The notes beneath the pieces are model-generated. The model was not told the DNA's origin. It did not search any database and saw only the letters and a list, made by a program, of their open reading frames with translations. A program made the position numbers and the translations under genes. A stretch of DNA of 64,000 nucleotides from a virus, in IMG/VR virus record IMGVR_UViG_3300046787_000130, positions 32,001-96,000 of that record; one strand, written 5' to 3'. Positions 5,301 through 64,000 of the stretch are shown here, in pieces; within the stretch, counting starts at the first letter, position 1; every line of letters starts with the position of its first letter.

Positions 5301-5984
5301 GTTCTAGAAAAGGAAAAGTATGGTATTGTTACTGATGATTTTACTGACTTTACTGTGGCTGATGGAACTAGTGCCGACCTAGTGTGCAACATCTCCAAGG
5401 CTAGACTTGGACCTTATCGCGCACAGAAGCCTTTCAAACTAGATTATCAATCAGTATCAGGTTCAATCAGCATTAATGATAGAACCATTTCGTTAGCATA
5501 TTCACAAGAAGCCTGCATTACGCAGAATACCGCAACCAAGGCAATTACTGTGCAGCCATATGAGTTTGCTCAGTTCTATGGCTCAATGAAGTTGTTCCCA
5601 GAAACTGACTACTGGTACAGCACTCAATTGGTTCCAGAAGTATTAACTGCATCAACGCAGATTTCTCCGCATTTAGAACGACCGCCATCACCGCCAGAGC
5701 CAACCCCAGCACCAGAAATTAATCCTTCTGCAAATTTGGTAAGCGCACCTGTTACAGTTGGTCTACCAAACTTCTGGCAGAATCAGATTAACCCTGTTGA
5801 CGGATTTGGTACTATAGATATCAATAGCAACTGGTTTGGTGCAGGACTTGCTACGCCTTGGATTGCTCCTAGCGTATCCAACTTTGACATAACTTTTGGT
5901 AGCAATATTCCAGGCATAAGTGGTGTTAGCGGCGGTCTTAGTGGAATAAATCGTTTAACTGGCGGCACAGTCGCCCAAGTTTAA
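2316..5984 (+). CDS. Large virion structural protein, VrlC/DUF4815-like (N-terminal part)
   Basis: Motifs FNIDPYYDDF, RILFRPGKAVQARELTQIQSILQNQI, LARRTYDESGDY and NKRYTMRDIGALEKRVENIEYYTSL. Follows gp8. Confidence 0.8.
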   Translation: MANTSFNFNIDPYYDDFESSGGAREQNYMRILFRPGKAVQARELTQIQSILQNQIKSFGDHIFKDGSPVQGGHLTLDANAKSVKLLPQYNNIDIDLTDFNGNLIKDTGTANVKAVVVAVDDSQVNPTLVVKYLTANEFTTSQNLQVANTTINATTTASDASASASTVSINEGIFYVDGYFVYVAAQTIVLDPYNRTPSYKVGLQIVDGIVNESTDSSLLDPAQESFNFQAPGATRYQFDLELTKRTLTSTDDSKFFELLRVENGIITKQIEYPVYSEIEKTLARRTYDESGDYTVKPFRVTVSENQSTANTFKVNVEPGKAYVKGYEFETFGTISLVNDKANTSATTKDYSFSLDYGSYVITSNVYSGGANGFFDIASYESVDLHTVPVASINTKSSAVYSNTKIGTARVRNIDLASGTDYYAYLVDINTAPKNITVTTVTANAQSVNLGSTFSALDDAYKGVNLRTVSGTGTDSYTRTITSYNGTTKIAVVDIPFATALDTSSPSIVSLVYNIKDCDSIVRAPTVFTSNMYVGQDATTPFLPSMDIAYNGKSVDGKAVLFDGNRGGVVYPLPETYVTASAFSDITYYKKKVFTSTSAVPSGSNVTFTLAATGNEKFFFGNGDLSSTTAKANFIVVNRFDGKTMDLGATPNLVSQVSDTSLTIRIKGTYASAQTADIIATLQVLDAGSSGKTLKGNTSNATLIVSDTYTTGAAVLSTSSGVYINKTKDAQVWFKSPSYIQKTPGVPQSLYVTDVIRLIKAFDSGNISWAPNSTNQIDITERYVLDGGQRDNYYDFATVTLRNGYAAPTGQTVFLLQCFEHSGSTYFNSASYSPYYTTNQIPNYATKNGVISLRDAVDFRPTRANSITTDPTTFALSTRDIPSPDFFFQATYNYYVPRIDKLVLTRDKEFKIVKGVASIAPVMPPNSDDGMTLYNLYIPPYTANVAEIGIEYVENKRYTMRDIGALEKRVENIEYYTSLNVLELQARNETILYEDNVLEKEKYGIVTDDFTDFTVADGTSADLVCNISKARLGPYRAQKPFKLDYQSVSGSISINDRTISLAYSQEACITQNTATKAITVQPYEFAQFYGSMKLFPETDYWYSTQLVPEVLTASTQISPHLERPPSPPEPTPAPEINPSANLVSAPVTVGLPNFWQNQINPVDGFGTIDINSNWFGAGLATPWIAPSVSNFDITFGSNIPGISGVSGGLSGINRLTGGTVAQV

Positions 5985-6000
5985 TAGGTAAAAAGCAAAT

Positions 6001-8973: not shown

Positions 8974-10089
8974 ATGGCTAATGCAAATATTAGTGAAATT
9001 GTCTTATCAGACACATTTAATACATGGGTGCAAAGACACAATGTAGTAGCAAATACTATCAATGTCCTCCGCAATGGTGCTTACTATAAGGATGGGGGCA
9101 GTCTCACTCTAAATGTTGCTACTACCATTTCTGATAATGGCACCTTAACGTTGTCTAAGACTACCGGTACAGTTCTTTCTGTTGCCGGTAATACCTCCAT
9201 ATCCAAGGATTTGTTCTTAGGACCAACCAGTATTAATGTTAATTCTGTATTAGCAAATACACCTAATACTGCTAGAGTTTCTGCTAACGGCAGCTCAACG
9301 CTATCAGCACAACAAATTAATTTTGTCAATACTGCAACCATTCAAGTATCAGTAGTTTCAGGAGCAGGTGCTGCAGCAGGTAATGCTAATGTATCTTTCT
9401 CTGTTGTTGGCGGTGCTGGAACACAAGGTGCTCAAGGTACTCAAGGTCTTCAGGGTTTGCAAGGGCGCCAAGGTGTTCAAGGAACACAAGGAATAGGTTC
9501 TCAAGGCGTACAAGGTCTTCAGGGTGTTCAAGGAACAGGTTCACAAGGTACTCAAGGCGCGCAAGGTTCTGGCTCGCAAGGTTCTCAAGGTGCTCAAGGT
9601 GCTGGTTCTCAGGGTCTACAAGGTCTTCAGGGCGTTCAAGGAACAACTGGACCAGTAGCAGGTTCAACCGGACAATTAATATACAACAATGCTGGTAGTG
9701 CTGGTGGCGCAAGTGGAACAAGTTTCGATTCATCAACAACTACATTAACAGCAACAGCAAATGTTCGATACACGGGAACAATTGTTGACACTCCAATCGT
9801 CTCTACTAGCGCAAGTGCTACCTATAGCGAAAATGCTGCTGGTAAGGTTGTTATTGTTGATACTTCAATTGGCGCAAGAACAATCACCTTTGCTGCGGCT
9901 GCATATGCTGGATTTAGCACTACAGTAATTCGCGCAGGTACTGGCAATGTAACCATTGCTCCCGGTGCTGGTGTTACAAAGCAAAACAGTTCAAGTTTCT
10001 CAACTGCAAATATCGCAACCTCATATTCAGCTGCAACAGTTATATACTCAGCAACTAATGAAATTATCTTGGTGGGAGATATTCTGTAA
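8974..10089 (+). CDS. Collagen-like fibre protein
   Basis: N-terminal DTFNTW motif typical of T4-like fibre N-termini, a G-X-Q repeat block and a ~100 aa C-terminal module ending LVGDIL. Confidence 0.65.
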   Translation: MANANISEIVLSDTFNTWVQRHNVVANTINVLRNGAYYKDGGSLTLNVATTISDNGTLTLSKTTGTVLSVAGNTSISKDLFLGPTSINVNSVLANTPNTARVSANGSSTLSAQQINFVNTATIQVSVVSGAGAAAGNANVSFSVVGGAGTQGAQGTQGLQGLQGRQGVQGTQGIGSQGVQGLQGVQGTGSQGTQGAQGSGSQGSQGAQGAGSQGLQGLQGVQGTTGPVAGSTGQLIYNNAGSAGGASGTSFDSSTTTLTATANVRYTGTIVDTPIVSTSASATYSENAAGKVVIVDTSIGARTITFAAAAYAGFSTTVIRAGTGNVTIAPGAGVTKQNSSSFSTANIATSYSAATVIYSATNEIILVGDIL

Positions 10090-10541
10090 TGACTTTTTTG
10101 CGACGTGGAGCATCATTTAAGTCTGACAAATATAGAGTTGAACTTGGCGAGTTTATCAGTCCACAAGTTAACTCTTATGGTGCAGGCGGTTCAGGCGGAG
10201 TTGGATTGTACATTTATAATAACGGCTTTATGGATGCTACTGGAACTAAAAGCAGACCTGAAGGTGTAATTTTAAATACTTTTACCAATAGAAAGTGGAA
10301 ATTATCACAAAGTCTTGCAAGCACCTACTACGTTAGAGCCACTGATAATGGAAGTATTGACGTTCCTGGTGGTAGCGGATTTGATACTTGGTTGCAATTA
10401 AATACAACTAGAAGTTGGACATTGTCAACATCAGCAAATGATGTAAGTTCAGATTTTATAATTGAAATTGCAGCTGATTCTGGCGGACAAAGAATACTAG
10501 ATACAGTAGGCGTTCATTTTGAAGTATTTGTATCAGGGTAA
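10089..10541 (+). CDS. Hypothetical fibre-associated protein
   Basis: 150 aa ORF, translationally coupled (TAATG) to the fibre gene; beta-rich composition. Confidence 0.5.
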   Translation: MTFLRRGASFKSDKYRVELGEFISPQVNSYGAGGSGGVGLYIYNNGFMDATGTKSRPEGVILNTFTNRKWKLSQSLASTYYVRATDNGSIDVPGGSGFDTWLQLNTTRSWTLSTSANDVSSDFIIEIAADSGGQRILDTVGVHFEVFVSG

Positions 10542-10544
10542 TCT

Positions 10545-11249
10545 ATGAGACATCAATTATTGTTCGGAACAACTCGCGGATATCAAGTTGACCTTAACCC
10601 AGGTGGAGGTTCGTTTTCTGCTACAACCTATGATACATTAGGTATTGCTGGAACTACAATTGGTACTAGCGGAAGTTTAACTATTCCTTCCGGCGCTGCG
10701 CAGATTGTCGTAGAAATCTGGGGCGGCGGCGGTGGCGGTGCTGGCGGCTATTATGACACTAACGATTATGGTGGCGGTGGCGGCGGTTCTGGTGGTTACA
10801 CTAAGATAACACGCGCTCTTGTTTCTGGAGATGTAGGTAAAAGCGTATCTTGGTCTAGAGGCGCAAAAGGTGTTGCTGGAACAAATGAAATTGCACCTAA
10901 TTCTTCAGTTGTTTGTCCCGGTACTAATGGCGGGCAATCTACCTCTGCTGGCGCTACGTTAACAAATAGTTTTAGCATCACTGCGGGCGGCGGTCAAGGT
11001 GGTCAAATTGATACCACGGCACCATTTACGAGTGGCGGCAGTGCCGGTACTACTTCTGGCGGTGATGCCGGCAGCAGTGCTGGTACAGCAGGAACTACTG
11101 GTAGCACTGATACTATTGGTCTCGGAGGTGCCGCTAAAGTTGGCATTAGTAGCAGAAGTGCTGGTGCTGCAGGTGATGGTGGATTATATTTGGGTGGAGA
11201 TATTCCAACTGATGGTGGAGATGGTAGAGTTATTATCTATCTCACCTAA
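10545..11249 (+). CDS. Glycine-rich domain protein (putative fibre tip/adhesin)
   Basis: VEIWGGGGGGAGG...GGGGGSGGY...GGDGRVIIY pattern of phage Gly-rich tip domains. Confidence 0.6.
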   Translation: MRHQLLFGTTRGYQVDLNPGGGSFSATTYDTLGIAGTTIGTSGSLTIPSGAAQIVVEIWGGGGGGAGGYYDTNDYGGGGGGSGGYTKITRALVSGDVGKSVSWSRGAKGVAGTNEIAPNSSVVCPGTNGGQSTSAGATLTNSFSITAGGGQGGQIDTTAPFTSGGSAGTTSGGDAGSSAGTAGTTGSTDTIGLGGAAKVGISSRSAGAAGDGGLYLGGDIPTDGGDGRVIIYLT

Positions 11250-11280
11250 ATACATGATACTCTAACGCAGAGACGCTATC

Positions 11281-11613
11281 ATGGCATATGTAGAACTTAC
11301 CATCGACCAAGGCACCACATTCGAAACTTCTGTAAGTTTGACGAATGATGACCAGACCGCAATTAATATCACAAATTATGGGTTTGCATCCCAAATTCGC
11401 AAATCATACTACTCAACAAATCCTGTTGCTAACCTTACAGTAACCATTGCGGATGCTGCTACAGGTAATGTTAAACTATCTATGACGGCTGCTAATACCG
11501 CTAATGTTAGGGCTGGTAGATACCTTTATGACCTAATAATGACTGATACTGGCGGCGTAAAAACTAGGGTGATTGAAGGAATTATTACCGTCACTCCACA
11601 GGTTACTAGATGA
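11281..11613 (+). CDS. Small virion structural protein (fibre adaptor-like)
   Basis: LTIDQGTTF...SQIRKSY...GRYLYDL...TRVIEGIITVTPQVT, a common T4-like structural family. Preceded by a TAAATA late promoter. Confidence 0.65.
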   Translation: MAYVELTIDQGTTFETSVSLTNDDQTAINITNYGFASQIRKSYYSTNPVANLTVTIADAATGNVKLSMTAANTANVRAGRYLYDLIMTDTGGVKTRVIEGIITVTPQVTR

Positions 11614-12386
11614 AAATTAATGTAACGAATAACAATAAAGTTGGTGGCGTTACAGTATCAACATCGCCATCAGTAGATAAGGTTAGCCTTAAAAGCGGCG
11701 CACCTGGTCCTGTAGGTTTAACTGGCGCACAAGGCACTCAAGGTACACAAGGTGCTGGTAGCCCCGGTTCTCAGGGCGCTCAAGGTGCTCAGGGCGCACA
11801 AGGCGTACAGGGTTCAGGTAGCCAAGGTATTCAAGGACTACAAGGTGTACAAGGCTTAACAGGCGCTGGTAGTCAAGGCGCTCAAGGAACTGCAGGTTCT
11901 GGTGTTCAAGGCGCTCAAGGTGTTCAAGGGACGTCAATCCAAGGGGCTCAAGGAACAAGCGTCCAAGGCGTTCAAGGAACTTATGGACCCCAAGGAACTC
12001 AAGGAATTCAAGGGATAACTGGAAGCGTCTCTCTTTGGTCAAGAAAAACTAGTAATTATACTACCTCAAGTAAAGATAGAATTATCGCGGATACATCAGG
12101 CGGTGCATTTACTATTACGCTTCCAGCAACTCCTGTAACTGGTGATTTTATTTCTATCTATGATGGTGCAGATTTTAGTGCAAATCCTCCAATAGTAGAC
12201 AGAAATGGTTCTACAATTGAAGGATATGCTGATAACGTTGCGCTGGATATCGGTGGAACAACATACGATTTTGTTTATGACGGGACGACTTGGGAAATTA
12301 CTGCTGCATTAGGAAAACAAGGCATACAAGGTGCTACTGGTACTGGCGGTACTGGATTAGATATTTTTATGCTGATGGGAGTTTAA
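11610..12386 (+). CDS. Collagen-like protein with a gp9/gp10-like domain
   Basis: G-X-Q repeats followed by NYT...IADTSGGAFTITLPATP..GD.I...FVYDGTTW. Confidence 0.6.
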   Translation: MKINVTNNNKVGGVTVSTSPSVDKVSLKSGAPGPVGLTGAQGTQGTQGAGSPGSQGAQGAQGAQGVQGSGSQGIQGLQGVQGLTGAGSQGAQGTAGSGVQGAQGVQGTSIQGAQGTSVQGVQGTYGPQGTQGIQGITGSVSLWSRKTSNYTTSSKDRIIADTSGGAFTITLPATPVTGDFISIYDGADFSANPPIVDRNGSTIEGYADNVALDIGGTTYDFVYDGTTWEITAALGKQGIQGATGTGGTGLDIFMLMGV

Positions 12387-12390
12387 GGGA

Positions 12391-12717
12391 ATGGCAACAA
12401 CATATAAGGTGCTTGGTCAATCTGCACCATCAGCAACAACCAATACAGATTTGTATACCGTTCCGTCAGCAAATTCTGCGGTGTGCTCTACAATAGCAAT
12501 CTGTAATCGCAGCACTTCAGCAAACTATAGAGTAGCAGTTAGACCAGCAGGTGCGGCAATCGCAAATCAGCACTACATCATATATGACAATTATGTAAAT
12601 CAATATGATACGGTATTTTTAACTTTGGGCATAACTCTCGCAGAAACAGATGTTGTTACAGTATATGCTGGTAGCGCAAACCTTTCATTTTCGCTATTTG
12701 GTTCGGAAATAGCCTAA
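12391..12717 (+). CDS. Small virion structural protein
   Basis: YKVLGQSAPSATTNTDLYTVP...LGITL...SFSLFGSEI, a common small beta-sandwich family in phage fibre regions. Confidence 0.55.
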   Translation: MATTYKVLGQSAPSATTNTDLYTVPSANSAVCSTIAICNRSTSANYRVAVRPAGAAIANQHYIIYDNYVNQYDTVFLTLGITLAETDVVTVYAGSANLSFSLFGSEIA

Positions 12718-12718
12718 T

Positions 12719-15187
12719 ATGAGCATTAGAACGGGGCTAACATCTGGATTATCATCTAGACACACGTTCAATGTAACACCGCCATTAGCCGATGGAATTC
12801 CAGCATCCCCCGTAGATACCTGGGTTCGCAATCCATCTTGGCCAACACTAACTGAAGTTGGCGCTAGTGAGCAAAAATTAATTGGGTTAATGGCAGTCTT
12901 TCCAAAATCAAACTTTGCTGCAGTTAATGCTACTGGCAATTACACGGTTGATTGGGGTGATGGTACTGTCACCAATTATAGCAGTGGCGTACAAGCAAAC
13001 TACTCACATAGTTTTGCTAGTGCTGCATTAGCAAATACGGATGCGCCGGTAACACTTACTGCATCAACTGACTTGGTTTCTAGAACTGCTCACGGTTACT
13101 CAAATGGTATGATAGTAACCTTATGGAATCTTAGCGGCGGCGCAGGTCTAACTGATGCGCAACAATATTATGTCGTTAACGCAACCGCAGATACATTTCA
13201 AGTAAGTTCATCCGTTGGCGGAGCAGCCATTGATATTACTACAGATGGCACTGCTACGCTATTACCATATAAGATTGCTATTGTAACAATTACGCCACAG
13301 GCTGGTGCAAATCTTACTACCTTCAATCTTAACGTTAAAAATAGCACTAGCGGATTGTTGTTATATGAAACTGGTTGGTTGGATATTAGCGTAGGAAGCC
13401 CTAATTTTAGCGCAACAATAACTTCGATTAGCATAACTGATGGCGCTGGCGTAGAGAATGTAGCCAAAAATATGCTTGAGCGAGTCTCTGTAGTCAACTT
13501 AGGCTCGGCTACCGCTTGTTCTTTTAGATTGTTACGCGGGTTAAGACGTATTGTTATGGGAAGTACGTCTAACATTACTAGCACGGCTAATATGTTTAAC
13601 GGATGCACGGCTTTACAAACTATCCCGCTGTTTGATACTTCAAAAGTAACCAGTGTTAACAATATGCACAATAATTGTGCGGCATTAACTTCAGTTCCTT
13701 TATATAATCTTCCGCTGTGTACTGACTTCAATCTTATGTTTAGTTCATGCTACTCATTGACGTCAGTACCTGCATATAACACGTCCAATGCAACCTCAAT
13801 GATACAGACGTTTCAAAACTGTTATTCATTAATAACTGTACCCTTATTTGATACCGCAAAAGTCACTACTATGGCTAACATGTTTAGCAATTGCTTTTCA
13901 TTAACGTCTGTTCCGTTGTTTAATACGGCTGCAGTTACAAATATGGGGGCTATGTTTCAAAATTGCCTAACGCTAAAATTAGCACCATTGTTTAATACCG
14001 CAAACGTAACTAGCATGGGTAGCATGTTCTTAAACTGCACTTTGCTAACTACGGTGCCATTATTTGATACCGCAAAAGTTACCAGCATGTCTAGTATGTT
14101 TCAAGGTTGCTTTGAATTAAAGACGGTTCCATTTTTTAACACTGCCGCAGTAACCAGTATGGCTACCATGTTTGCAAACTGCTCAGCATTAACTGAGGTA
14201 CCATTTTTTAGTACTGCAGCAGTTACTGCTATGAATTCTATGTTTAGCGGTTGTAGCGCATTGACTACTGTTCCATTATTTAATACATCTAATGTAACTA
14301 CAATGCAACAGATGTTCCAGAACTGCTATTCTTTATTATCCGTACCATTATTTGACACAGTAAAAGTTAATAATATGGCTAGCATGTTTAGCGGCTGTAA
14401 AACTTTGCTTAATGTTCCTCTATTTAATACAGTTGCCGTAACAAATATGGGAAGTATGTTTAATAGTTGTGCCGTATTATTATCAGTTCCTTCGTTTAAT
14501 ACAGTTGCCGTAACAAATATGGGAAGTATGTTTTTAGGATGTTCTGCGCTATTAACCGTCCCGTTGTTTAATACTTCTCTTGTAACTGATTTTTCGTATA
14601 TGTTTAGCGGTTGCACCACTTTACAATCGGTTCCATTATTTGATACGTCTAAAGCAACAAGTATGCTTGCAATGTTCGTTAGTTGCTATTCTCTTAGAAC
14701 AATACCGCAATTTAACACGCCGCTAGTGTTAAATTGCAATAATATGTTTTTAGGGTGCTATAACCTAATATCGGTGCCATTATTCAACACGGCAAATGTT
14801 ACTACTATGAATTTGATGTTTAATGGATGTGCTGCTCTTAGAAAAATTCCAGCATTTAATACATCAAAAGTTACTGATTTCGGTAATATATTTCAAAACT
14901 GTACTACATTGTTAGAAATACCTGCGTTAAGCGGTGCTGCCGCAACGTCTGCAACAACATATTCAAACATGTTCCTTTCATGTCCCTCTGTTTCTAGGAT
15001 TGCAATTACAGGATTTAAATATACATTTAGCGTTGCAAGTTGCAAACTTAGCGCGACTGAACTGGATGAAATATATACAAATTTGGCAACTGTTGTAGGT
15101 CAAACAATAACCGTAACAGGTAATTATGGGGTAACATCAGATACCCCATCTATCGCTACTGCTAAAGGTTGGACGGTGACAGGATAA
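12719..15187 (+). CDS. BspA/DUF285-like leucine-rich repeat surface protein
   Basis: About 20 tandem 22-aa repeats (VPLFNTxxVTxMxxMFxxCxxLxx); PKD-like VDWGDG near the N-terminus; C-terminal IATAKGWTVTG. Confidence 0.8.
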   Translation: MSIRTGLTSGLSSRHTFNVTPPLADGIPASPVDTWVRNPSWPTLTEVGASEQKLIGLMAVFPKSNFAAVNATGNYTVDWGDGTVTNYSSGVQANYSHSFASAALANTDAPVTLTASTDLVSRTAHGYSNGMIVTLWNLSGGAGLTDAQQYYVVNATADTFQVSSSVGGAAIDITTDGTATLLPYKIAIVTITPQAGANLTTFNLNVKNSTSGLLLYETGWLDISVGSPNFSATITSISITDGAGVENVAKNMLERVSVVNLGSATACSFRLLRGLRRIVMGSTSNITSTANMFNGCTALQTIPLFDTSKVTSVNNMHNNCAALTSVPLYNLPLCTDFNLMFSSCYSLTSVPAYNTSNATSMIQTFQNCYSLITVPLFDTAKVTTMANMFSNCFSLTSVPLFNTAAVTNMGAMFQNCLTLKLAPLFNTANVTSMGSMFLNCTLLTTVPLFDTAKVTSMSSMFQGCFELKTVPFFNTAAVTSMATMFANCSALTEVPFFSTAAVTAMNSMFSGCSALTTVPLFNTSNVTTMQQMFQNCYSLLSVPLFDTVKVNNMASMFSGCKTLLNVPLFNTVAVTNMGSMFNSCAVLLSVPSFNTVAVTNMGSMFLGCSALLTVPLFNTSLVTDFSYMFSGCTTLQSVPLFDTSKATSMLAMFVSCYSLRTIPQFNTPLVLNCNNMFLGCYNLISVPLFNTANVTTMNLMFNGCAALRKIPAFNTSKVTDFGNIFQNCTTLLEIPALSGAAATSATTYSNMFLSCPSVSRIAITGFKYTFSVASCKLSATELDEIYTNLATVVGQTITVTGNYGVTSDTPSIATAKGWTVTG

Positions 15188-15191
15188 AAAA

Positions 15192-15380
15192 ATGGAAGAC
15201 ACATCAGGTTTTTATAAATTAGATGGAACACTGCTATACGGACCAAATTTCGTATATAATGCAAATTATACGCTACTTCGCGAAGAGCACGCTAATCATT
15301 CCTATCCTATAGATGGTTGGTACTGGTTTGATTCAGAAAATGCTGCTCGTTTGTTTTTTGAATTACCTATTGAAACGTGA
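15192..15380 (+). CDS. Small hypothetical protein, companion of the repeat protein
   Basis: 62 aa ORF (SGFYK...GPNFV...YPIDGWYWFDSE) starting 4 nt after the BspA-like gene. Confidence 0.55.
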   Translation: MEDTSGFYKLDGTLLYGPNFVYNANYTLLREEHANHSYPIDGWYWFDSENAARLFFELPIET

Positions 15381-55026: not shown

Positions 55027-57234
55027 ATGGAATTAATTCAAAGCAAATCTGTTCTTGCGCGCCTCATGGCTGCTGAGAACATCAACATTCACCACCAGAA
55101 TGTGCCCACGGCATATTTTGACCTCAAGAATCGTTCGCTTGTCCTGCCCATGTGGGGTGAGATGGACGGTTACATGTATGACCTGCTCTGCGGTCATGAG
55201 GTTGGTCACGCGCTGTACACGCCGTTTGATGGCTGGCATCACAATACGCATAGCAATCCTGCTATGAAGCCATTCCTCAATGTGATTGAGGATGCGCGCA
55301 TTGAGAAGCGCATCAAGTCAAAGTTTCCTGGGCTGTCCAAGTCATTTGCTCAGGCTTATGCTGACCTGTATGAGCGTGATTTCTTTGGCATCAAGAAGAT
55401 TGATGACCTCAATACACTGAACCTCATTGACCGCATTAACTTGTATTTCAAGTTGGGCGCGCACGTCATCGTGCCGTTCACCGATGCTGAACGTGTGTTT
55501 GTTCGTGATACCAGCAACGCTGAAACGTGGGATGACGTGGTTGAGATTGCCAACCGCGTGTATGCCTATGTCAAGCAGAATGAATCCGACAAACTGAACA
55601 GCGTTCAGGATTTGATGGACAAGTTGGCTGACATGCTACAAGATGACCTTAATGATGTTGAGTCTGATGGTCAATCTGACGATTCTATGGAGTATGATGA
55701 CGCCGAATCTGATGACAGTGAGGATGATGGCGCGTCTGGCGGCATGTCTGACGAATCTGATGGTGATGGCGACGATGATTCTGACGCTGCTGGTTCTACC
55801 GGTGACGATGAAGATTCTGAAAATAGCGAGACTCCCAGCAGCACTACCGGCATGAATGGCGGCGTCAGCGATGACAAGACGCAGACTGAACCGTCATCCA
55901 TCACGGATGATATTTTCCGTCAGCGTGAATCTGAGTTGGTGTCCAACGGCAAGGGCAACGTGTATATGTTTGACCTGCCAATCCCCAACCTGAAGAACAT
56001 TATTGTTCCTGTTGAAACCACGCTCAAAAAGTTTGAGGCTGAGGCTAATCGTTTCAATCTTGATGAGATGACGCGCCAGTCTGTTTCTGAGTTCAACTCG
56101 CGCAACAGCAAGTACATTGCTATGCTGGTCAAGGAATTTGAGATGCGCAAGAATGCCACAGAATATGCCCGTGCGCAAGTTTCTCGCAGTGGTCAACTTG
56201 ACACCAGCAAACTCCATCAGTTCAAGTTGAAGAATGACCTGTTCAAGCGGGTCACTACTATCGGCAAGGGCAAGTCTCACGGCATGCAACTGGTGTTTGA
56301 CATGTCTGGTTCGATGTATGAAATCTTCAAGGAGACTGTTGAGCAGATTCTTGTGCTTTCGGTGTTCTGTAAGCGCGTCAACATTCCGTTTGAGGTGTAT
56401 GGCTTTACTGACATTCGGCGTCTGAACCCTCATGCTGGTCAGCGTTGGACACGCGGTTATGGTGAATCTGAGGCTGCGCGTAATGCCAAGCCTACCATGT
56501 ATGGTGACCCGCATTTTAGCCTCATCAAGTACCTGTCGTCAGATATGTCGGCTAGCACATACCGTCGTGCGTTTAACATGCTTGCCACCGTTGCCATGAA
56601 GTACAACAAGCACAACAACTATTTTGGTGCTGCTATGAGTTGGGATACTGCTGGCTTTGAACTTGGTGGCACGCCACTGGCTGAGACCATGATAACCATG
56701 CGCACGCTGGCTGAACAGTTTAAGCATCGCACGGGTGTTGACCACGTCAATCTGGTCATCATGACTGACGGTGAAGGGCACGGCAACAGCACCAGTCACT
56801 CTTATAACTACGCACAAGACACTGCTTATGTTGTTGACCCGCAGAACAAGGAACGTCAGAAGATATACGGCAACCAATATGGCATAAATGAAGCCGTTGA
56901 GAAACTTGTACACAAGTCGCTGTCTCAACTAGGCATCAAGGTGATTGGCTACTACATTGCCAAGCATGCTCGCCATCTCGCGTATGCTTGCCGTAGCGTC
57001 AATGCTACTGCTATGAAGGCTGCTATCAAGAAGCAGGGATTCTTTGTTGAAACCAATCGAATTGGTTTTGACAAGTATTTCCTGCTCCCGATTGGTGAGG
57101 CTCAGGCTGAAACTATGGGTGACGTTGACGCCACAAATAAGAATGCGCTGCGCACTGCCTTCAAGCAGATGCAAAAGGGCAAGCAAGCCAACCGTGCACT
57201 CGCAACCAACTTTGCCAAGGAGATTGCACTGTAA
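55027..57234 (+). CDS. HEXXH metallopeptidase-like / VWA domain protein (CobT-like partner of the MoxR ATPase)
   Basis: N-terminal GHEVGHALYT and NVIEDARIE; acidic linker; VWA MIDAS motifs DMSGSM, GGTPL and MTDGE. Confidence 0.85.
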   Translation: MELIQSKSVLARLMAAENINIHHQNVPTAYFDLKNRSLVLPMWGEMDGYMYDLLCGHEVGHALYTPFDGWHHNTHSNPAMKPFLNVIEDARIEKRIKSKFPGLSKSFAQAYADLYERDFFGIKKIDDLNTLNLIDRINLYFKLGAHVIVPFTDAERVFVRDTSNAETWDDVVEIANRVYAYVKQNESDKLNSVQDLMDKLADMLQDDLNDVESDGQSDDSMEYDDAESDDSEDDGASGGMSDESDGDGDDDSDAAGSTGDDEDSENSETPSSTTGMNGGVSDDKTQTEPSSITDDIFRQRESELVSNGKGNVYMFDLPIPNLKNIIVPVETTLKKFEAEANRFNLDEMTRQSVSEFNSRNSKYIAMLVKEFEMRKNATEYARAQVSRSGQLDTSKLHQFKLKNDLFKRVTTIGKGKSHGMQLVFDMSGSMYEIFKETVEQILVLSVFCKRVNIPFEVYGFTDIRRLNPHAGQRWTRGYGESEAARNAKPTMYGDPHFSLIKYLSSDMSASTYRRAFNMLATVAMKYNKHNNYFGAAMSWDTAGFELGGTPLAETMITMRTLAEQFKHRTGVDHVNLVIMTDGEGHGNSTSHSYNYAQDTAYVVDPQNKERQKIYGNQYGINEAVEKLVHKSLSQLGIKVIGYYIAKHARHLAYACRSVNATAMKAAIKKQGFFVETNRIGFDKYFLLPIGEAQAETMGDVDATNKNALRTAFKQMQKGKQANRALATNFAKEIAL

Positions 57235-57245
57235 TGGTGAAAACG

Positions 57246-57304
57246 TAAGTGATTGATTCTACAAAAGAATTTCCCATCGACTTTTTCGCAGATTCCAGTA
57301 TACT
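57246..57304 (+). promoter_or_regulatory. Composite promoter copy 3: IHF consensus plus sigma70-like boxes
   Basis: TAAGTGATTGATT (57246), TCGACT (57277), 16 nt spacer, TATACT (57299). Confidence 0.72.
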
Positions 57305-57341
57305 TTATATATGATGAATAATTCAAGTGAGGTTTGATAGT

Positions 57342-58574
57342 ATGTACGCTCCCAATTTTACTGCTGCTGAGCAGATTGCTCTGCTGGATAAACTTGCCAA
57401 GCACTACAAGAGCAGCGAGTTGACCACCAAGCAGATTCTGGACTATGCTGATGCCAACGGCATCAAGATTCCATACTTCATTTTGAATAGCAAGACTCGC
57501 AAGGTTGGTCGTGGCTTGTTTGACGTATCCACCAGTGGCGCTGCGGCTGCTGGTTCGCGCAAGCCCAAGGCAGACGCTGCGGCATCCCCTGCCGCACCTG
57601 CCCCTGCTGCTGAGGCTCAGGTTGCGATGGTCGCGCAGGTGGTTTCTCTGCCCACCAAGCGTGCTGCCAACGTGACTGAATCCTATGTGCCTGAACTGAA
57701 TCGCACGTATGTGCCGTTTGGTTTCTTCAATGACCTGAAGAACATTATCAAGTCTGGTGTGTTCTATCCGGTGTACATCACTGGCTTGTCCGGCAACGGC
57801 AAGACATTCATGGTGGAGCAGATTTGCGCGCAACTCAAGCGTGAACTCATCCGCGTGAACATCACCAAGCGCAGCGATGAGGATGCCCTGATTGGTTCCT
57901 ATGAACTGATTGACGGCAACACCGTGCGCCGTGAAGGTCCAGTGCTGACTGCGATGCGTCGTGGTGCGGTGCTGCTGCTTGACGAAACGGACTATGGCAC
58001 TGAGGATTTGCTGTGCCTTCAGCCCATCCTTGAGGGCAAGCCATACTTCGACAAGAAGACTGGTGAGGTGATTCACCCTGCCAAGGGTTTCACCGTGCTG
58101 GCTACTGCCAACACCAAGGGCAAGGGTTCAGATGATGGTCGGTTCATCGGTGCTAACACGCTGAATGAAGCATTCCTTGAGCGTTTTGCCATCACCGTTG
58201 AGCAGGAGTACCCGCCTGTTGCGACTGAGCGCAAGATTCTGAGCAAGAATTTTGCTGAACTTAACATCAATGACGACAAGTTCATTGACCATCTCATCAC
58301 CTGGGCTGAGGTCATTCGCAAGACTTTCAATGAGGGTGGTGTTGAGGAAGTCATCAGCACGCGCCGTCTGGTTCACATTGCCAAGGCATACAGCATCTTC
58401 AAGAGCCGCAAGAAGGCTGTTGAACTCTGCCTAAACCGCTTTGACAATGAAACCAAGACGGGTTTTCTTGACCTGTACACCAAGGTTGACCCTGAAGTGA
58501 GCAGCGCAAACACCGCAGCCCCTGAAACGGCGCAGACTGAAGAACACCAGATGGATAGTGACATCCCGTTCTAA
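57342..58574 (+). CDS. cobS: MoxR/CobS-like AAA+ ATPase
   Basis: Walker A GLSGNGKT, Walker B LLLDE, ATANTKGKGSDDGRFIG, LNEAFLERF and ISTRRL. ATG 57342 follows GAGGT; alternative GTG start at 57327. Confidence 0.9.
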   Translation: MYAPNFTAAEQIALLDKLAKHYKSSELTTKQILDYADANGIKIPYFILNSKTRKVGRGLFDVSTSGAAAAGSRKPKADAAASPAAPAPAAEAQVAMVAQVVSLPTKRAANVTESYVPELNRTYVPFGFFNDLKNIIKSGVFYPVYITGLSGNGKTFMVEQICAQLKRELIRVNITKRSDEDALIGSYELIDGNTVRREGPVLTAMRRGAVLLLDETDYGTEDLLCLQPILEGKPYFDKKTGEVIHPAKGFTVLATANTKGKGSDDGRFIGANTLNEAFLERFAITVEQEYPPVATERKILSKNFAELNINDDKFIDHLITWAEVIRKTFNEGGVEEVISTRRLVHIAKAYSIFKSRKKAVELCLNRFDNETKTGFLDLYTKVDPEVSSANTAAPETAQTEEHQMDSDIPF

Positions 58575-58608: not shown

Positions 58609-58659
58609 CTTGTTGGATGTAAATGTCACCGCATCCAACAAGGCTTTTTCTTGGTGACA
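58609..58659 (+). other. Predicted H-type RNA pseudoknot in the 5' leader
   Basis: Stem 1: 58609-58620 pairs with 58631-58642. Loop TGTCACC (58624-58630) is complementary to GGTGACA (58653-58659). Confidence 0.65.
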
Positions 58660-58673
58660 AATTGGAGTTGATT

Positions 58674-58955
58674 ATGTCCGCAGTTGAATCGTTTTATACT
58701 TACCTTGCTGAAGGCAATACCGTAACCACTCGCGCTGCCCGCGCAATGTTCAAGGTTGAGCACGTCAGCACTCTAGTGTACCGTTTGCGCAATGCTGGTG
58801 TTCCGGTTTACACCAACCGCTACACGACCAGCCGTGGTGAGCGCACCTTTGCCTATCGCATTGGTCAGCCATCTGAAGCATTTGAGAATGCTCTCAGCAC
58901 TCGTCATAAGGCACGTGCTCGCAAGGCACTCTACCGTCAGGCTGTTGGCGCATAA
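58674..58955 (+). CDS. Winged helix-turn-helix protein
   Basis: YL..GNTVT...A...F.V...STLVYRLRNAG..VYT...YRIG pattern; GGAG ribosome binding site at 58664 supports ATG 58674. Confidence 0.7.
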   Translation: MSAVESFYTYLAEGNTVTTRAARAMFKVEHVSTLVYRLRNAGVPVYTNRYTTSRGERTFAYRIGQPSEAFENALSTRHKARARKALYRQAVGA

Positions 58956-58982
58956 GTATAAGTCACCTTGCTTGTGACTTTG

Positions 58983-59007
58983 GGGGAGCAGAAATGCTCC
59001 CCTTTTT
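58983..59007 (+). terminator. Intrinsic terminator
   Basis: GGGGAGCA-gaaa-TGCTCCCC followed by T5. Confidence 0.9.
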
Positions 59008-59063: not shown

Positions 59064-60404
59064 ATGGTAACTGTAATTGTAGCAAAATCAAAATTGGATT
59101 GTGAACAACTGCTTGGACAGTTTGTAGATGAATCGCATTATGATGTCGTTGTAGATATGGATGTTGATTGCTACATGCCCCGTAACTGTAATGCTGCTGA
59201 GATTCTAGATTGTAACCAAGATTGCAATAATTGCGATAAAGGGCAAGATGAGAGCCGTATTGCTTTCAAGTTCAGAAAGAATTGGTTCACTAAGGAAGAA
59301 CAAGAGCAAGCCTATGAAGGGTTGCGAGATGCCGCTACACCATCAAACAATCGCGGTATTGCTGCTGGACCAAGAGGCAGTTATTCAGGCTCACGTTGGT
59401 ATGTTACTGACTATCAGCAGAAGATTCTAGACTACATTGAACAGGAACCTGAAACATCTTTCACGCCATTCAAAGATATTCTAAAAGAGATTGATGCTAA
59501 AGAATCAAAGGAGCATAGCACTCATGGCGCTGTTTGGCTCACTGCTCAGATTGAAGAAGACAAGTTTGATTTTGATAAGTGGGTCAAGCAAACTATTAAA
59601 ATGACTGTTGCTGAACGCAAAGCAGCGGCTGCTGATGTAGTCAAGAATTATATCTCAGGCACTCACTATGCTAACAAAGTCAATTCAGGTATTGCCGGAT
59701 GGTATGACCGTTATCCCCGCGCACCTTTTGGTCGCGCAACAGCATACACGCAGCATCACTATAGTAAGTTTGAAAAGTCATTTCCATTCCTACAGTCTCT
59801 GAATAGAGGTTTCAAAGAGTTGATGCCACAGCGTTGGAGCAACCAACGTAAAGCCGCTGATACACTTGACCAACGGTTCCTAGTTCCTGACACCGTGTTT
59901 ACAACCATTACAGTAAACAAGACTTTCAGAACGGCTTGCCATCGTGACGCAGGCGACTTCAATGATGGGTTGAGCAACTTGCTTGTACTGTCTAACAACG
60001 GCAAGTACAGAGGCGGCTATCTAGTGTTTCCTGAATACCGAATCGCAGTAGATGTTCGTCCCGGTGACTTATTGCTAGTTAACAATCATGAAATTATTCA
60101 CGGCAATACTCCCATTGAAACATATGATGATGGTGAGCGTATTAGCCTAGTTTGCTATTTGCGTGAAGGGATGCTTGAGTTGGGTTCTAAGGAATATGAA
60201 GATGCGCGGTTCAACTTCGTAGAAGAGCGCAAGCGTAACAAGGAACATCCTGACTGGCGCAAAGGCTGGAATGGCATCAGTCCAGGAATGTGGACACATC
60301 ATGAATGGTATGACTATCTGCGAGAGTTAGATGAGACAATGCTAGCAAAGTATCATCCTGAAGTAATAGCAACTACATCAGCATTAGATTCACTCTGGGA
60401 TTGA
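59064..60404 (+). CDS. TET/JBP-family 2OG-Fe(II) dioxygenase
   Basis: FTTITVNKTFRTACHRDAGD (HxD), distal HGNT and R.SLVCYLRE; upstream SGIAGWYDR. Confidence 0.85.
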   Translation: MVTVIVAKSKLDCEQLLGQFVDESHYDVVVDMDVDCYMPRNCNAAEILDCNQDCNNCDKGQDESRIAFKFRKNWFTKEEQEQAYEGLRDAATPSNNRGIAAGPRGSYSGSRWYVTDYQQKILDYIEQEPETSFTPFKDILKEIDAKESKEHSTHGAVWLTAQIEEDKFDFDKWVKQTIKMTVAERKAAAADVVKNYISGTHYANKVNSGIAGWYDRYPRAPFGRATAYTQHHYSKFEKSFPFLQSLNRGFKELMPQRWSNQRKAADTLDQRFLVPDTVFTTITVNKTFRTACHRDAGDFNDGLSNLLVLSNNGKYRGGYLVFPEYRIAVDVRPGDLLLVNNHEIIHGNTPIETYDDGERISLVCYLREGMLELGSKEYEDARFNFVEERKRNKEHPDWRKGWNGISPGMWTHHEWYDYLRELDETMLAKYHPEVIATTSALDSLWD

Positions 60405-60405
60405 T

Positions 60406-61038
60406 ATGTGCGCAGTAATTGGAGTTGACCTCAAGAATCCTTCAATGGATGACTTGCATCTTGTTATGAATGTCTTCCTTGAATCTAAGATTCGTGGAAT
60501 GCACGCAACAGGCTTAACCTTTCTATGTGATAACAAACTAATAACATTGATTGCGCCATTGCCGGCAGATAAGTTTTCTCCGATTGAAAACCTATTAGAT
60601 ATGGTAGACAACAACGCGCTTAAACTAATTGGTCATTGTCGGTATAGCACTAGTGACCTTGAATATAATCAACCGCTATACAATAATGATGTTGCCATCG
60701 TTCATAATGGCGTTATCTCTCAGGAACTACCTGAGAACTGGGAGAAGTTGTATGGGATTACTACAAAGACTAAAAACGATAGTGAACTGTTATTGCACAC
60801 AGTCGCTGATAGTCCTCTTATGCTATGGTCTAACGCTAGCATTGCTGCTATTGAGTTGCATCGCAGCGGTGTAATGAAGGCTTATCGAAATGGTAAGCGA
60901 CCGCTGTATGTAACTGAACTAGATAATGGTGTTATCTATACGTCAACTGCTGATATCATGTACAGAGCATCTAAAGGCAGGTATGTTGCCAAGCGGCTTG
61001 ATTTTGAAGGAAAGGATTTACAGTGGACTATCGCTTAA
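60406..61038 (+). CDS. Class II (Ntn) glutamine amidotransferase, stand-alone
   Basis: Cys2 nucleophile (MCAVIG), RG.HATG, GHCRYST, HNG, NDSE and RPLY. Confidence 0.85.
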   Translation: MCAVIGVDLKNPSMDDLHLVMNVFLESKIRGMHATGLTFLCDNKLITLIAPLPADKFSPIENLLDMVDNNALKLIGHCRYSTSDLEYNQPLYNNDVAIVHNGVISQELPENWEKLYGITTKTKNDSELLLHTVADSPLMLWSNASIAAIELHRSGVMKAYRNGKRPLYVTELDNGVIYTSTADIMYRASKGRYVAKRLDFEGKDLQWTIA

Positions 61039-62042
61039 AAGAAAATCGACGTGAAGCATTCATCCGTTGGTATGCTTGGGCATTAGAGTACAAAGACTGC
61101 GACCCTGCTGTTTGGCTTACAAACTACCTCAACAAGCGTTATGAACATAATGATGAAGAACGTATTTGGTTATGTTGGTTGTATGGTAATACTTACCAGT
61201 TGCCTACAGCATGGGTACTCAAGAATGAATTTCCAGACTATGAACTTGCTACAGTAGATAGAATCACTGCTTGGAACACTACTAACTATAAGAGACTGCG
61301 ATATCAAACTGACACCAAGTGGAACAAGGGTCATCTGCCTGCGATGTTCGCATCATATCAAGAACTAATCGGCAATCGCAGCCAACGTGAAGTGATGGAG
61401 AGTTATTATGAGGGAACACCTGAAACTAATTTTAATAGCATATGGAATCTATTTCAGAGCAGTCTCCATAAGTTTGGTCGTTATTCTTGCTGGTTCTATC
61501 TACAACATCTTCATCACACTGCTGGTCTTGATGTTGTACCTACTAATCTCATGCTCTCTGATTATAGTGGCTCCCGTTCACATCGTAACGGCTTGCTTTT
61601 CGCCCTTGGACAAGATGACAGTGTCGATGAGCGCCTTTCAAGCGCGAAATATAATAGTCTTGAGTCAGCTGCGGCAGATATTCTCATCGAAATGAAAATT
61701 CGATTCCCTAAGATACGGGATGAGATTAATTTCTTTACGATGGAAACCTGCTTGTGTTCATTCAAGAAACTATTCAGAGAGAAGCATGGACGATATCTTG
61801 GGTATTATCTTGACAGGCAATCTGAAGAGATAGTACAAGCAGAGCAAGATGGTTGGCATGGCATTGATTGGAGTGTACTATGGCAAGCGCGAAATGAGAC
61901 ACTAGACAATCGGTTGGTAGGCAGAAAAGAAATTGAGGATGAAAGGTTTACTTTTTTCCTCCGTTCAGGTAGAATAGACCGATTGGAATGGATGTTTGAT
62001 GATTCCGCTTTGCCTGTAGGCTTGGAGGCATTTTATGATTAG
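61023..62042 (+). CDS. aGPT-Pplase (amino acid:DNA transferase)-like protein
   Basis: DCDPA, W..WLYG.TY, HhH-like KFGRYSCWFYLQ, SRSHRNGL, ETCLCSFKK and RYLGYY resemble alpha-glutamyl/putrescinyl thymine pyrophosphorylase clade 2. Neighbourhood supports the call. GTG start. Confidence 0.72.
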   Translation: MDYRLKENRREAFIRWYAWALEYKDCDPAVWLTNYLNKRYEHNDEERIWLCWLYGNTYQLPTAWVLKNEFPDYELATVDRITAWNTTNYKRLRYQTDTKWNKGHLPAMFASYQELIGNRSQREVMESYYEGTPETNFNSIWNLFQSSLHKFGRYSCWFYLQHLHHTAGLDVVPTNLMLSDYSGSRSHRNGLLFALGQDDSVDERLSSAKYNSLESAAADILIEMKIRFPKIRDEINFFTMETCLCSFKKLFREKHGRYLGYYLDRQSEEIVQAEQDGWHGIDWSVLWQARNETLDNRLVGRKEIEDERFTFFLRSGRIDRLEWMFDDSALPVGLEAFYD

Positions 62043-62616
62043 AGTGATTGCTGTCGGGGGTGAACCTGCTACTGGCAAGACAACCCTGATGTTTAAGTTG
62101 ATTGATATGGCTGATGATTGGGTTACTTGTAAGCCTGAAAAACTTCTTGATGCCTTGTATAGCAAGACATTAAACACTTACATTCTTGGTAAGTATGAAA
62201 AGGGAAGTACATTTCAAGGTACTGATAGGTTGAGCATGGCAGTTCAGCCTGATGCCGAAAAGTTTATCAGTAGCCTTAACTATGAAGACTCTGATGTCAA
62301 TGTAATCTTTGAAGGTGATAGGTTATTCAACAGTAAATTTCTTGAGCACTGCTCCAAGAACACTAAGCGGTTTAATATCATACTGTTGCAAGTTGCCGCT
62401 GATATTGTAAAGCAGCGACACATTAACCGCAATGATACGCAAACCGAAAAATTTATAAATGGTCGCAAGACTAAACTAGACAATATCAGTAGTTCCCTAG
62501 TGTTGATGGACTATATAAGTGTAAGGGAAAACAACACTGTTGTTGACCAGCAGAAGATTATTAGTGATATTGTTAATTACTTTAAGTGGAGTGAGAATAA
62601 TGCAACTGGAATTTAA
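62035..62616 (+). CDS. P-loop nucleotide kinase (hydroxymethyl-pyrimidine DNA kinase-like)
   Basis: GGEPATGKTT, LGKY...FQGTDRLSMAVQP and FEGDRL; adjacent to the aGPT-Pplase-like gene. Confidence 0.78.
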   Translation: MIRVIAVGGEPATGKTTLMFKLIDMADDWVTCKPEKLLDALYSKTLNTYILGKYEKGSTFQGTDRLSMAVQPDAEKFISSLNYEDSDVNVIFEGDRLFNSKFLEHCSKNTKRFNIILLQVAADIVKQRHINRNDTQTEKFINGRKTKLDNISSSLVLMDYISVRENNTVVDQQKIISDIVNYFKWSENNATGI

Positions 62617-63397
62617 GGTTGAAGATTTGAAGAAGAAGAAATTGTTTATTGCTACGCCAATGTATGGCGGGCAGTGCTTTGGTATGTATGCAAAGTCTAC
62701 GCTAGATTTACAGGCACTTTGCATTCAGCATGGAATTGATGTTAGGTTCTCATTTATCTTTAATGAATCCCTAATCACCCGCGCAAGAAACTATCTTGTT
62801 GATGAATTCCTACGTTCAGGGTTCACTCATATGTTGTTCCTTGATGCTGATATCCATTTTGACCCGCGTGACGTTATTGCCATGCTTGGTCTTGACCGTG
62901 ATATCATTGGTGCGCCATATCCTAAGAAGAGCGTTAAGTGGTCTTCTGTAAAGGAAGCAATCAAGCGCAATCCTGATATTACTCATGCTGAACTTGAAAA
63001 GGTTACAGGTGACTTTGTGTTCAATCCAGTTCCTGGTACTGAACGCTTTCAGGTTAATCAGCCTGTTGAGGTACTTGAACTTGGAACTGGCTTCATGATG
63101 ATTAAGCGTGAAGTGTTTGAAAAGTTTGAGAAGCAGTATCCTGAACTTCGCTACAAGCCAGACCACGTTGGTCAGGCTAACTTTGATGGCGCACGTTACA
63201 TTCACGCATACTTTGACACCGTGATTGACCGTGGTAAGTCAGACCGCTATCTCTCTGAAGACTATATGTTCTGTCAGTGGTGGCGTAACATGGGTGGTCA
63301 GATTTGGCTCTGCCCGTGGATGCGTACACATCACATCGGAACCTACGCCTTCACTGGCGACTTGGCTGCTGTAGCAAACTACGTCGGCACTCTATGA
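62600..63397 (+). CDS. GT-A fold glycosyltransferase-like protein
   Basis: IATPMYGG, ESLITRARN, FLDADI (DxD), GTGFMMIKREVF and LSEDYMFC; ATG at 62600. Confidence 0.75.
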   Translation: MQLEFKVEDLKKKKLFIATPMYGGQCFGMYAKSTLDLQALCIQHGIDVRFSFIFNESLITRARNYLVDEFLRSGFTHMLFLDADIHFDPRDVIAMLGLDRDIIGAPYPKKSVKWSSVKEAIKRNPDITHAELEKVTGDFVFNPVPGTERFQVNQPVEVLELGTGFMMIKREVFEKFEKQYPELRYKPDHVGQANFDGARYIHAYFDTVIDRGKSDRYLSEDYMFCQWWRNMGGQIWLCPWMRTHHIGTYAFTGDLAAVANYVGTL

Positions 63398-64000
63398 TTG
63401 TAGGGCTTGTTGGCTTTATTGGGGCTGGTAAAGGTAGTGTGGCGGACATTCTTGTTGAACGCCACGACTACTTTAAAGAAAGTTTTGCCAATAGCGTCAA
63501 GGATGCGGTTTCAGCTGTATTTGGCTGGAACCGCGCTCTTCTTGAAGGTGATACACCCGAGTCACGCGCATGGAGAGAGCAGGATGATGAATTCTGGTCC
63601 AAGAAACTAGGCAAGCCATTCTCCCCAAGACTAGCCTTACAACTTATGGGCACAGAGGCAGGTCGCGATGTATTTCACCCTGACCTCTGGGTTCATACTG
63701 TTCTACGTCGGTGTGAGAATGCACCTTGGAACAACTATGTAATTGCTGATGTTCGTTTCCCTAATGAAGTCAAAGCAATTCATGACGCAGGTGGTATTAT
63801 TGTAAGAGTTAGGCGTGGTCCAGAACCTGAATGGTATAATACTGCGCTTAAAACTAATAAAAAAATTAACTACTATGGTATGGCTGAAAACTATCCTGAT
63901 GTTCACTTTAGCGAATGGGCATGGATTGGTTCTGAAATTGATTTTGAGATTAACAACAACCGTACACTAGATGACCTAATAGAAAGAGTTGACTCTTTGG
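63394..64000 (+). CDS. gp1: Deoxynucleoside monophosphate kinase, gp1-like (runs off the window end)
   Basis: Not in the ORF track. ATGA overlap at 63394 gives MIVGLVGFIGAGKGSVAD...SFA..VKDAVS.VFGW.R.LLEG.T.ESR.WRE...PRLALQLMGTE...DVRFPNE. Confidence 0.88.
   Translation, partial: MIVGLVGFIGAGKGSVADILVERHDYFKESFANSVKDAVSAVFGWNRALLEGDTPESRAWREQDDEFWSKKLGKPFSPRLALQLMGTEAGRDVFHPDLWVHTVLRRCENAPWNNYVIADVRFPNEVKAIHDAGGIIVRVRRGPEPEWYNTALKTNKKINYYGMAENYPDVHFSEWAWIGSEIDFEINNNRTLDDLIERVDSL

Follow-up and report, generated by a model that had tools for sequence, protein, structure and literature searches.

A glutamine amidotransferase-containing cassette predicted to aminate thymine in the DNA of a T4-like phage

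IMG/VR record IMGVR_UViG_3300046787_000130 is a 161-kb phage contig with 42.6% GC, rated 96% complete. The stretch analyzed here (the window, 64,000 nucleotides, bases 32001-96000 of the record) carries six same-strand genes, nearly touching or overlapping, that run from a TET/JBP-family dioxygenase through a stand-alone class II glutamine amidotransferase (GATase), an amino acid:DNA transferase (AADT), a P-loop kinase, and a glycosyltransferase to a deoxynucleoside monophosphate (dNMP) kinase. We propose that the locus holds a cassette with which a T4-like phage hypermodifies thymidine after replication, and that ammonia supplied by the GATase would yield 5-aminomethyl-2'-deoxyuridine (5-NmdU) as its product, a reading to which we assign a probability of roughly 0.55. 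The five cassette genes and the dNMP kinase lie where a preliminary description of this DNA had placed them and pass Pfam, fold, and catalytic-residue checks, the Tet_JBP, GATase_6, ADDT, and Ploopntkinase3 profiles all finding their expected genes (Table 1). Two starts had to be moved within this layout: the glycosyltransferase, previously drawn from 62540, most likely begins at an ATG that follows a GGAG, and the dNMP kinase begins at ATG 63394.

The glutamine amidotransferase and its transferase partner

The arrangement is not a product of chance, because the TET, GATase, AADT, and kinase genes recur in the same order across IMG/VR loci. Among 59 other loci recovered by a scan with the GATase (44-87% GATase identity), the TET gene lies directly upstream of the GATase gene wherever the contig reaches that far, the AADT gene follows in 51, and the kinase gene in 47. 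Most of these relatives carry extra genes between GATase and AADT, encoding GNAT acetyltransferases (41 loci), Amidoligase_2-like proteins (23), or low-molecular-weight phosphatases (8). No homologue of any of the three was found in the window genome, so the window, together with relative L005, represents a minimal form of the cassette. In eight relatives (L043, positions 2169-2591, and seven others) the inserted genes are the phosphatase and an amidoligase-like gene, with no GNAT.

The GATase begins Met-Cys and keeps the class II glutaminase set (C2, R79, N101, G102, and D125) invariant across 30 sequences, and the nearest sequence of solved structure is the glutaminase domain of PurF (E = 0.005). 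It had been described as lacking a synthase domain and as overlapping the transferase gene, and both points hold: by Pfam, its 210 residues comprise the glutaminase domain only, the acceptor domain being absent from the polypeptide, and the two genes share 16 nucleotides. The C-terminal end, otherwise variable, retains a D-[L/Y]-Q motif (residues 204-206, window positions 61015-61023) in which Q206 is invariant and D204 is present in over 90% of sequences; this motif might be a docking element. Close homologues of the GATase were absent from the cultured phages in the phage-record collection, where only PaP3-like phages matched, at 25-28% identity. In Pseudomonas phage PaP3 (orf42-orf48) the distant GATase-domain protein is clustered with genes annotated as amidoligase, COOH-NH2 ligase, RimK-like ligase, and gamma-glutamyl cyclotransferase, and the region shown includes no annotated AADT. 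When GTDB species genomes were scanned with the GATase, the only matches were four short contigs of metagenome-assembled genomes, with no cultured host, and megablast of the cassette against phage records gave no match.

The transferase was expected to have the aGPT-Pplase fold, and its predicted structure (pLDDT 84) does: the three best matches in the PDB are all gp46 of Pseudomonas phage PaMx11 (8z2n, 8z2m; probability 1.0, TM-score 0.5-0.59), the only AADT whose structure has been solved. Searching the PDB with the AADT by sequence and by profile gave no real match, and the link to gp46 comes from the fold search and from a MAFFT alignment made through intermediate AADTs. In that alignment E241, T242, and C245, which are invariant in the family, correspond to gp46 E243, T244, and C247, the Glu and Thr metal ligands and catalytic Cys described for gp46 (PMC11472151). 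The P-loop kinase conserves the Walker A residues G9, G14, K15, and T17, and its family profile also matches the validated 5-hydroxymethyl-2'-deoxyuridine (5-hmdU) DNA kinases M6 gp54 and PaMx11 gp49. The pyrophosphorylated 5-hydroxymethyluracil (5hmU) intermediate cited as background in the preliminary description is dated; Lee et al. 2021 (PMC8989533) give a monophosphate, 5-phosphomethyl-2'-deoxyuridine (5-PmdU).

Elsewhere, GATase and AADT are joined in a single polypeptide. A search for longer homologues found a 560-residue GATase_6 + ADDT fusion in many Campylobacter jejuni assemblies (e.g. WP_126262916.1), where it lies in a phage-like element flanked by two genes annotated '5-hmdU DNA kinase 2' and by a ThyA-like gene that contains an intein. 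The AADT half of this fusion shares 35% identity with the AADT of the window (E = 2e-68), far closer than ViI-type AADTs are, and the GATase half is 42% identical to the window GATase. In a full-library profile search, at least eight GATase-AADT fusions appeared among the 150 best AADT cluster representatives, and seven of these eight start M-C-G, with Cys2 N-terminal. Their domains follow one another as in true class II amidotransferases. Since the fusions recur, and occur beside a ThyA-like gene as well, the GATase is firmly associated with this AADT clade, regardless of where 5hmU comes from, and the Campylobacter element is predicted to hypermodify thymidine. On one C. jejuni contig (PQZD01000003.1; L070, positions 10001-15280) the element is also near genes for ribonucleotide reductase, dUTPase_2, DNA polymerase A, and a ParM-like protein.

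Three more distant AADTs have mixed neighborhoods with no intact GATase gene annotated; a TET gene is beside one of them, and one contig starts with a truncated ORF of 28 residues immediately ahead of the AADT. Association with a GATase is therefore a trait of an AADT sub-clade and not of AADTs in general. The family also includes TET-AADT fusions and intein-containing members, as well as fusions to low-molecular-weight phosphatases and to pyridoxal phosphate (PLP)-dependent enzymes (P0102, P0143, P0101, P0146, P0022, and P0093).

In the scheme we favor, the phage would make ordinary dTMP via ThyX, and the TET/JBP enzyme would very probably hydroxylate thymine in polymerized DNA to give 5hmU. 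We are comparably confident, from homology, that the P-loop kinase would phosphorylate the hydroxymethyl group to 5-PmdU. The step that follows is, in our view, somewhat more likely than not: AADT Cys245 would attack C6, phosphate would be expelled, and the exocyclic methylene would be captured by ammonia that the GATase releases from glutamine, leaving 5-NmdU, a nucleoside of mass 257 u (PMC8989533). GATase and AADT would then be the two halves of a PurF-like amidotransferase whose acceptor is DNA. The free amine is probably the final base in the window phage and in its closest relative, both of which have the cassette in its minimal form. In most relatives, an added GNAT and/or amidoligase would acylate the amine, and the phosphatase found in eight of them might remove the phosphate from unreacted 5-PmdU. 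PaMx11 gp48 acetylates 5-NmdU and refuses its glycine precursor (PMC8989533); by analogy, the frequent presence of a GNAT gene beside the GATase gene suggests that the core product is a primary amine.

Nitrogen could instead arrive with a free amino acid. In this alternative, which we consider unlikely, the AADT would transfer glutamine, glutamate, or glycine, for example, and the GATase-fold protein would then be an amidohydrolase working on the DNA-bound adduct, either deamidating a glutaminyl adduct or cleaving a gamma-glutamyl-type amide to unmask the amine. Stand-alone class II GATase-fold proteins such as EgtC are indeed amidohydrolases and not ammonia donors, and the PaP3-like cluster places a related GATase domain among amidoligase, ATP-grasp, and gamma-glutamyl cyclotransferase genes. 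All biochemically characterized AADTs use amino acids (PMC8989533, PMC11472151). Against this alternative, the full glutaminase residue set is invariant in the GATase, and the fusions are laid out with an N-terminal GATase and a C-terminal acceptor domain, as is typical of true amidotransferases; the minimal cassettes of the window, L005, and the C. jejuni element have no further tailoring enzyme, and converting a glutaminyl to a glutamyl adduct would be pointless given abundant glutamate. The Lys150 with which gp46 holds glycine aligns with an invariant Phe158 in the window AADT, a mapping that rests on a MAFFT alignment at ~15% identity.

That low identity is one of several considerations that, with the EgtC precedent and the amino acid substrates of known AADTs, weigh against GATase-fed amination. 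hhalign of the AADT family against PaMx11 gp46 gave no link, and the kinase barely clears its Pfam cut-off. The GNAT of the relatives has no more than generic GNAT similarity to PaMx11 gp48, and we do not claim orthology between them. Some ParB-less enzymes of clade C1 of the phage 5-methylpyrimidine oxygenases (5mYOX) were inactive on T or 5-methylcytosine (5mC) in E. coli (PMC13229309), and no ParB was found here. Among the same 150 AADT representatives, AADT is also fused to kinases, a phosphatase, a PLP enzyme, and TET, including enzymes that act later, so a fusion speaks for partnership in a pathway and does not fix the GATase as acting before or during transfer. Of the earlier proposal that the GATase supplies ammonia, the partnership with AADT is borne out by the recurrent fusions and by the GNATs beside the GATase in most relatives, whereas the direction of nitrogen flow is not something that fusions give. 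The chemistry of the cassette as a whole is read from sequence and predicted folds.

Source of the hydroxymethyl group

The TET protein keeps H293, D295, H346, and R359, the HxD...H iron ligands and the 2-oxoglutarate (2OG)-binding Arg, invariant in an alignment with 28 relatives. Its model (pLDDT 83) best matches human TET2 (Z 19.6, root-mean-square deviation 3.6, 259 residues aligned) and NgTET1 (Z 18.1), and this fold match covers residues 1-384 by VIA-align, so the extra length of the protein is an insertion in the fold and not a separate domain. The idea that residues 1-215 are a fused ParB-like domain was rejected on the same grounds, with no Pfam match to that region and a feature search that returned TET only. 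A Cys-rich loop, with five Cys within residues 36-57 (window positions 59169-59234), is modelled at low confidence and shared by only some one in three of the aligned relatives; the loop may be an insertion that binds metal. Relatives such as L026 (positions 5402-6001) have a second, small 2OG-FeII_Oxy_5 oxygenase gene inserted between the TET and GATase genes.

The preliminary description had attributed the hydroxymethyl handle to TET/JBP action after replication, and the gene content of the phage agrees. The genome encodes ThyX, and across its 96%-complete sequence there was no match to PF00303, the ThyA-like family that would cover dUMP and dCMP hydroxymethylases, nor to PF00145, the C5 DNA methyltransferases. 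With ThyX present and both of these families missing, TET acting on DNA is the only candidate for making 5hmU, and it most likely converts thymine to 5hmU after replication. This route agrees with two published accounts (PMC8989533, PMC13229309): T-dioxygenase activity has been demonstrated for related phage 5mYOX enzymes, one clade of which is 'consistently linked' with GATases, P-loop kinases, and AADTs (PMC13229309).

The preliminary description had left the pyrimidine open, and TET/JBP enzymes do include 5mC oxidases, phage clades A and B being examples that oxidize 5mC (PMC8256090). A cassette that hypermodifies cytosine, with 5mC as the dioxygenase substrate, is nonetheless very improbable here: besides the missing PF00145 methyltransferase, the kinase and AADT belong to families of thymidine pathways, the homologous GATase-AADT fusion stands beside a ThyA-like hydroxymethylase and 5-hmdU DNA kinases, and 5mYOX enzymes linked to GATase, kinase, and AADT have been assigned to the T-dioxygenases (PMC13229309). 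ParB_N (PF02195), the profile used in that study, had no match at E <= 0.1 in the window genome, a search that a very divergent ParB could escape, and none at E <= 0.01 in five related records, of which two are complete.

Both TET and AADT end in short C-terminal tails (Table 1) that resemble the NSIDDFFG terminus of the DNA polymerase encoded by the phage itself. In two relatives the polymerase terminates in SLEDFFG and SLEDFF, which nearly match the ends of the TET proteins from those genomes, and only 3 of the 530 ORFs in the window genome fit the strict tail pattern, two of the three being TET and AADT. In T4-type polymerases (gp43) the C-terminal tail is the element that binds the gp45 clamp. 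Given these polymerase-like tails and the T4 precedent, TET is likely, and AADT probably, tethered to the gp45 sliding clamp, which, if true, would account for the ability of a post-replicative pathway to keep up with replication.

Transcription unit, glycosyltransferase, and neighboring genes

The cassette transcription unit appears to begin after an intrinsic terminator that closes an upstream helix-turn-helix (HTH) gene; the scan that found this strong terminator 5' of the TET gene found none comparable inside the cassette. TET and GATase genes are separated by a single nucleotide, and downstream of the GATase/AADT junction the overlaps are 8 nucleotides (AADT/kinase), 17 (kinase/glycosyltransferase), and 4 (glycosyltransferase/dNMP kinase), the last being an ATGA that contains the dNMP kinase start.

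Table 1. Features of the cassette and its borders (window coordinates).
Feature	Position	Strand	Evidence
Intrinsic terminator, closes upstream HTH gene; predicted cassette transcription unit begins after it	58982..59003	+	9-bp stem, 6 GC pairs, then T-run
TET/JBP-family Fe(II)/2OG 5-methylpyrimidine dioxygenase, 446 aa, predicted thymine hydroxylase	59064..60404	+	Pfam Tet_JBP 2.4e-23
TET C-terminal tail ALDSLWD; family consensus SLExFF(G)	60378..60401	+	resembles phage DNA polymerase tail
Stand-alone class II (N-terminal nucleophile, Ntn) glutamine amidotransferase, 210 aa	60406..61038	+	Pfam GATase_6 1e-11
Amino acid:DNA transferase (AADT, formerly aGPT-Pplase2), 339 aa, GTG start	61023..62042	+	Pfam ADDT (PF18724) 1.3e-21
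AADT C-terminal tail GLEAFYD; family consensus GLExF	62019..62039	+	C-termini comparison
P-loop 5-hmdU DNA kinase homologue, 193 aa	62035..62616	+	Pfam Ploopntkinase3 (PF18751) 1.5e-6, 28.3 bits vs cut-off 27
GT-A-like glycosyltransferase, 265 aa from ATG 62600	62600..63397	+	phrog_1574 3.7e-62; weak Anp1 5.7e-5
dNMP kinase, start ATG 63394, extends beyond window end	63394..63999	+	phrog_139 1.6e-43

The glycosyltransferase is, in our judgment, probably not part of the pathway. It follows the kinase in only 6 of the 59 loci, the closest relatives, and other T4-like relatives carry the cassette after the gp41 helicase gene with no glycosyltransferase. Homologues (48-54% identity) lie just upstream of the sliding-clamp (gp45) module in DLP6, Cr30, phiM12, phiM7, and phiN3, the last three of which (48-49% identical) gave no TET match. 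The window genome has the same layout downstream of the glycosyltransferase, with dNMP kinase, gp45, DsbA, gp44/62 clamp loader, RegA, and dUTPase genes. Because it precedes the sliding clamp even in TET-less phages and is rare with the cassette, we regard it as a lineage gene that happens to abut the cassette, as the preliminary description had allowed; its further suggestion of a glycosylated product found no support.

Co-transcription with the cassette leaves some room for a role. The glycosyltransferase might glycosylate part of the 5hmU, base-J-like and in parallel to amination, or might glycosylate the final base. We think either unlikely, for the distribution just described speaks against them, even though the gene overlaps the kinase gene with no terminator between them, the protein has a D-A-D (DxD) motif, glycosyltransferases are the commonest neighbors of phage 5mYOX genes (PMC13229309), and DLP6 and Cr30 combine a 46-47% identical TET with a glycosyltransferase homologue and no AADT.

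On the 5' side of the cassette (window positions 55027-58574) are genes for a 735-residue phrog_459 protein and a MoxR/CobS-like AAA_5 ATPase with a CbbQ_C domain, followed by a small HTH_39 gene (58623-58955). Relatives L005 and L011 carry these ATPase and HTH genes with the cassette as well, and AAA and HTH genes are likewise drawn in published T-dioxygenase neighborhoods (PMC13229309).

Relation to known pathways and significance

Kinase activation of 5hmU in DNA is common to the predicted pathway and to the 5-acetylaminomethyl-2'-deoxyuridine (5-AcNmdU) pathway of PaMx11, which comprises gp46 (AADT/PUGT), gp47 (flavin adenine dinucleotide (FAD) lyase), gp48 (GNAT), and gp49 (5-HMUDK) (PMC8989533, PMC11472151). 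The AADTs share a fold and an E-T-x-x-C active-site motif while being too distant for sequence searches to connect, the predicted amine is the same 5-aminomethyl-dU, and a GNAT occurs in PaMx11 as in most relatives of the window cassette, though not in the window phage. The two differ in where 5hmU comes from, a ThyA-like dUMP hydroxymethylase before replication in PaMx11 and a TET dioxygenase here, and in how the amine would be made: PaMx11 transfers glycine and then cleaves it in an FAD-dependent step, whereas the window has a GATase in place of the FAD enzyme. The thymidine pathway of Lee et al. (2018, 2021) is matched in the same partial way, with its AADT and P-loop kinase present and its pre-replicative, ThyA-like supply of 5hmU absent.

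The closest published counterparts are the 'ParB-dependent' clusters of 5mYOX clade C1 (O'Toole et al. 2026, PMC13229309; Lee et al. 2021, Fig. 2, sequences 22-25), which have the same set of Tet_JBP, GATase (PF13522), PF18751, and PF18724 genes and, like the window, lack an adjacent C5 methyltransferase and carry AAA ATPase and HTH genes close by. They differ in ParB_N, found neither in the window genome nor in two complete relatives, and in the length of TET, which in the window is ~150 residues longer, through its large insertion, than the ~300-residue clade enzymes (C280 is the last conserved residue of 5mYOX176).

PurF, a class II GATase fused to a phosphoribosyltransferase domain, offers the mechanistic parallel: an N-terminal-Cys glutaminase delivers ammonia that displaces a phosphate-type leaving group from an activated carbon, and its domain order is that of the homologous GATase-AADT fusions. 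In the window, by contrast, the acceptor would be a base in DNA, the acceptor domain is a helix-hairpin-helix (HhH)-glycosylase-like AADT, and the halves are separate, overlapping genes whose partnership is predicted. Base J synthesis in kinetoplastids (JBP1/2 and JGT) resembles the cassette in its post-replicative hydroxylation of thymine by TET/JBP enzymes and in the GT-A glycosyltransferase that the window places in the same operon, and differs in which partners are conserved, here the kinase, AADT, and GATase and not the glycosyltransferase. In the C. jejuni element, homologues of GATase and AADT are again flanked by 5-hmdU DNA kinases with no other tailoring enzyme adjacent; there the domains are fused, the kinases are of the HMUD2 type, and 5hmU would come from the intein-containing ThyA-like enzyme rather than from TET.

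The gene combination is not new, since clusters of TET, GATase, kinase, and AADT genes were noted in PMC8989533 and PMC13229309; these list the GATase among hypermodification genes with its function 'not yet known' and likewise leave the end product open. Relative to those two papers, the GATase as nitrogen donor is a new and testable idea, which may have been stated elsewhere in the literature. The window adds a ParB-less, T4-like, minimal form of the cassette, a well-supported proposal for the mechanism of the GATase, recurrent GATase-AADT fusions, and the polymerase-like tails of TET and AADT. A fuller picture can be sketched only tentatively: a split PurF-like GATase-AADT that takes the phosphorylated base in duplex DNA as its acceptor and makes 5-aminomethyluracil as the final base in one step, with TET and AADT riding the clamp by way of tails copied from the DNA polymerase, so that modification would trail the replication fork without a ParB activator. 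If true, this would be the first amidotransferase that acts on DNA.

Thymidine hypermodifications shield phage DNA from restriction and other nucleases, and the enzymes that make them are used to label and sequence DNA. Our findings leave the basic scheme of the pathway, from 5hmU through the kinase to AADT, as it was already known. Should the GATase feed ammonia to the AADT, however, the cassette would represent a new type of reaction, glutamine-dependent amination of DNA, and a way to place a primary amine handle on thymine in one step, and it would account for a whole clade of AADTs, including the natural fusions in the Campylobacter element.

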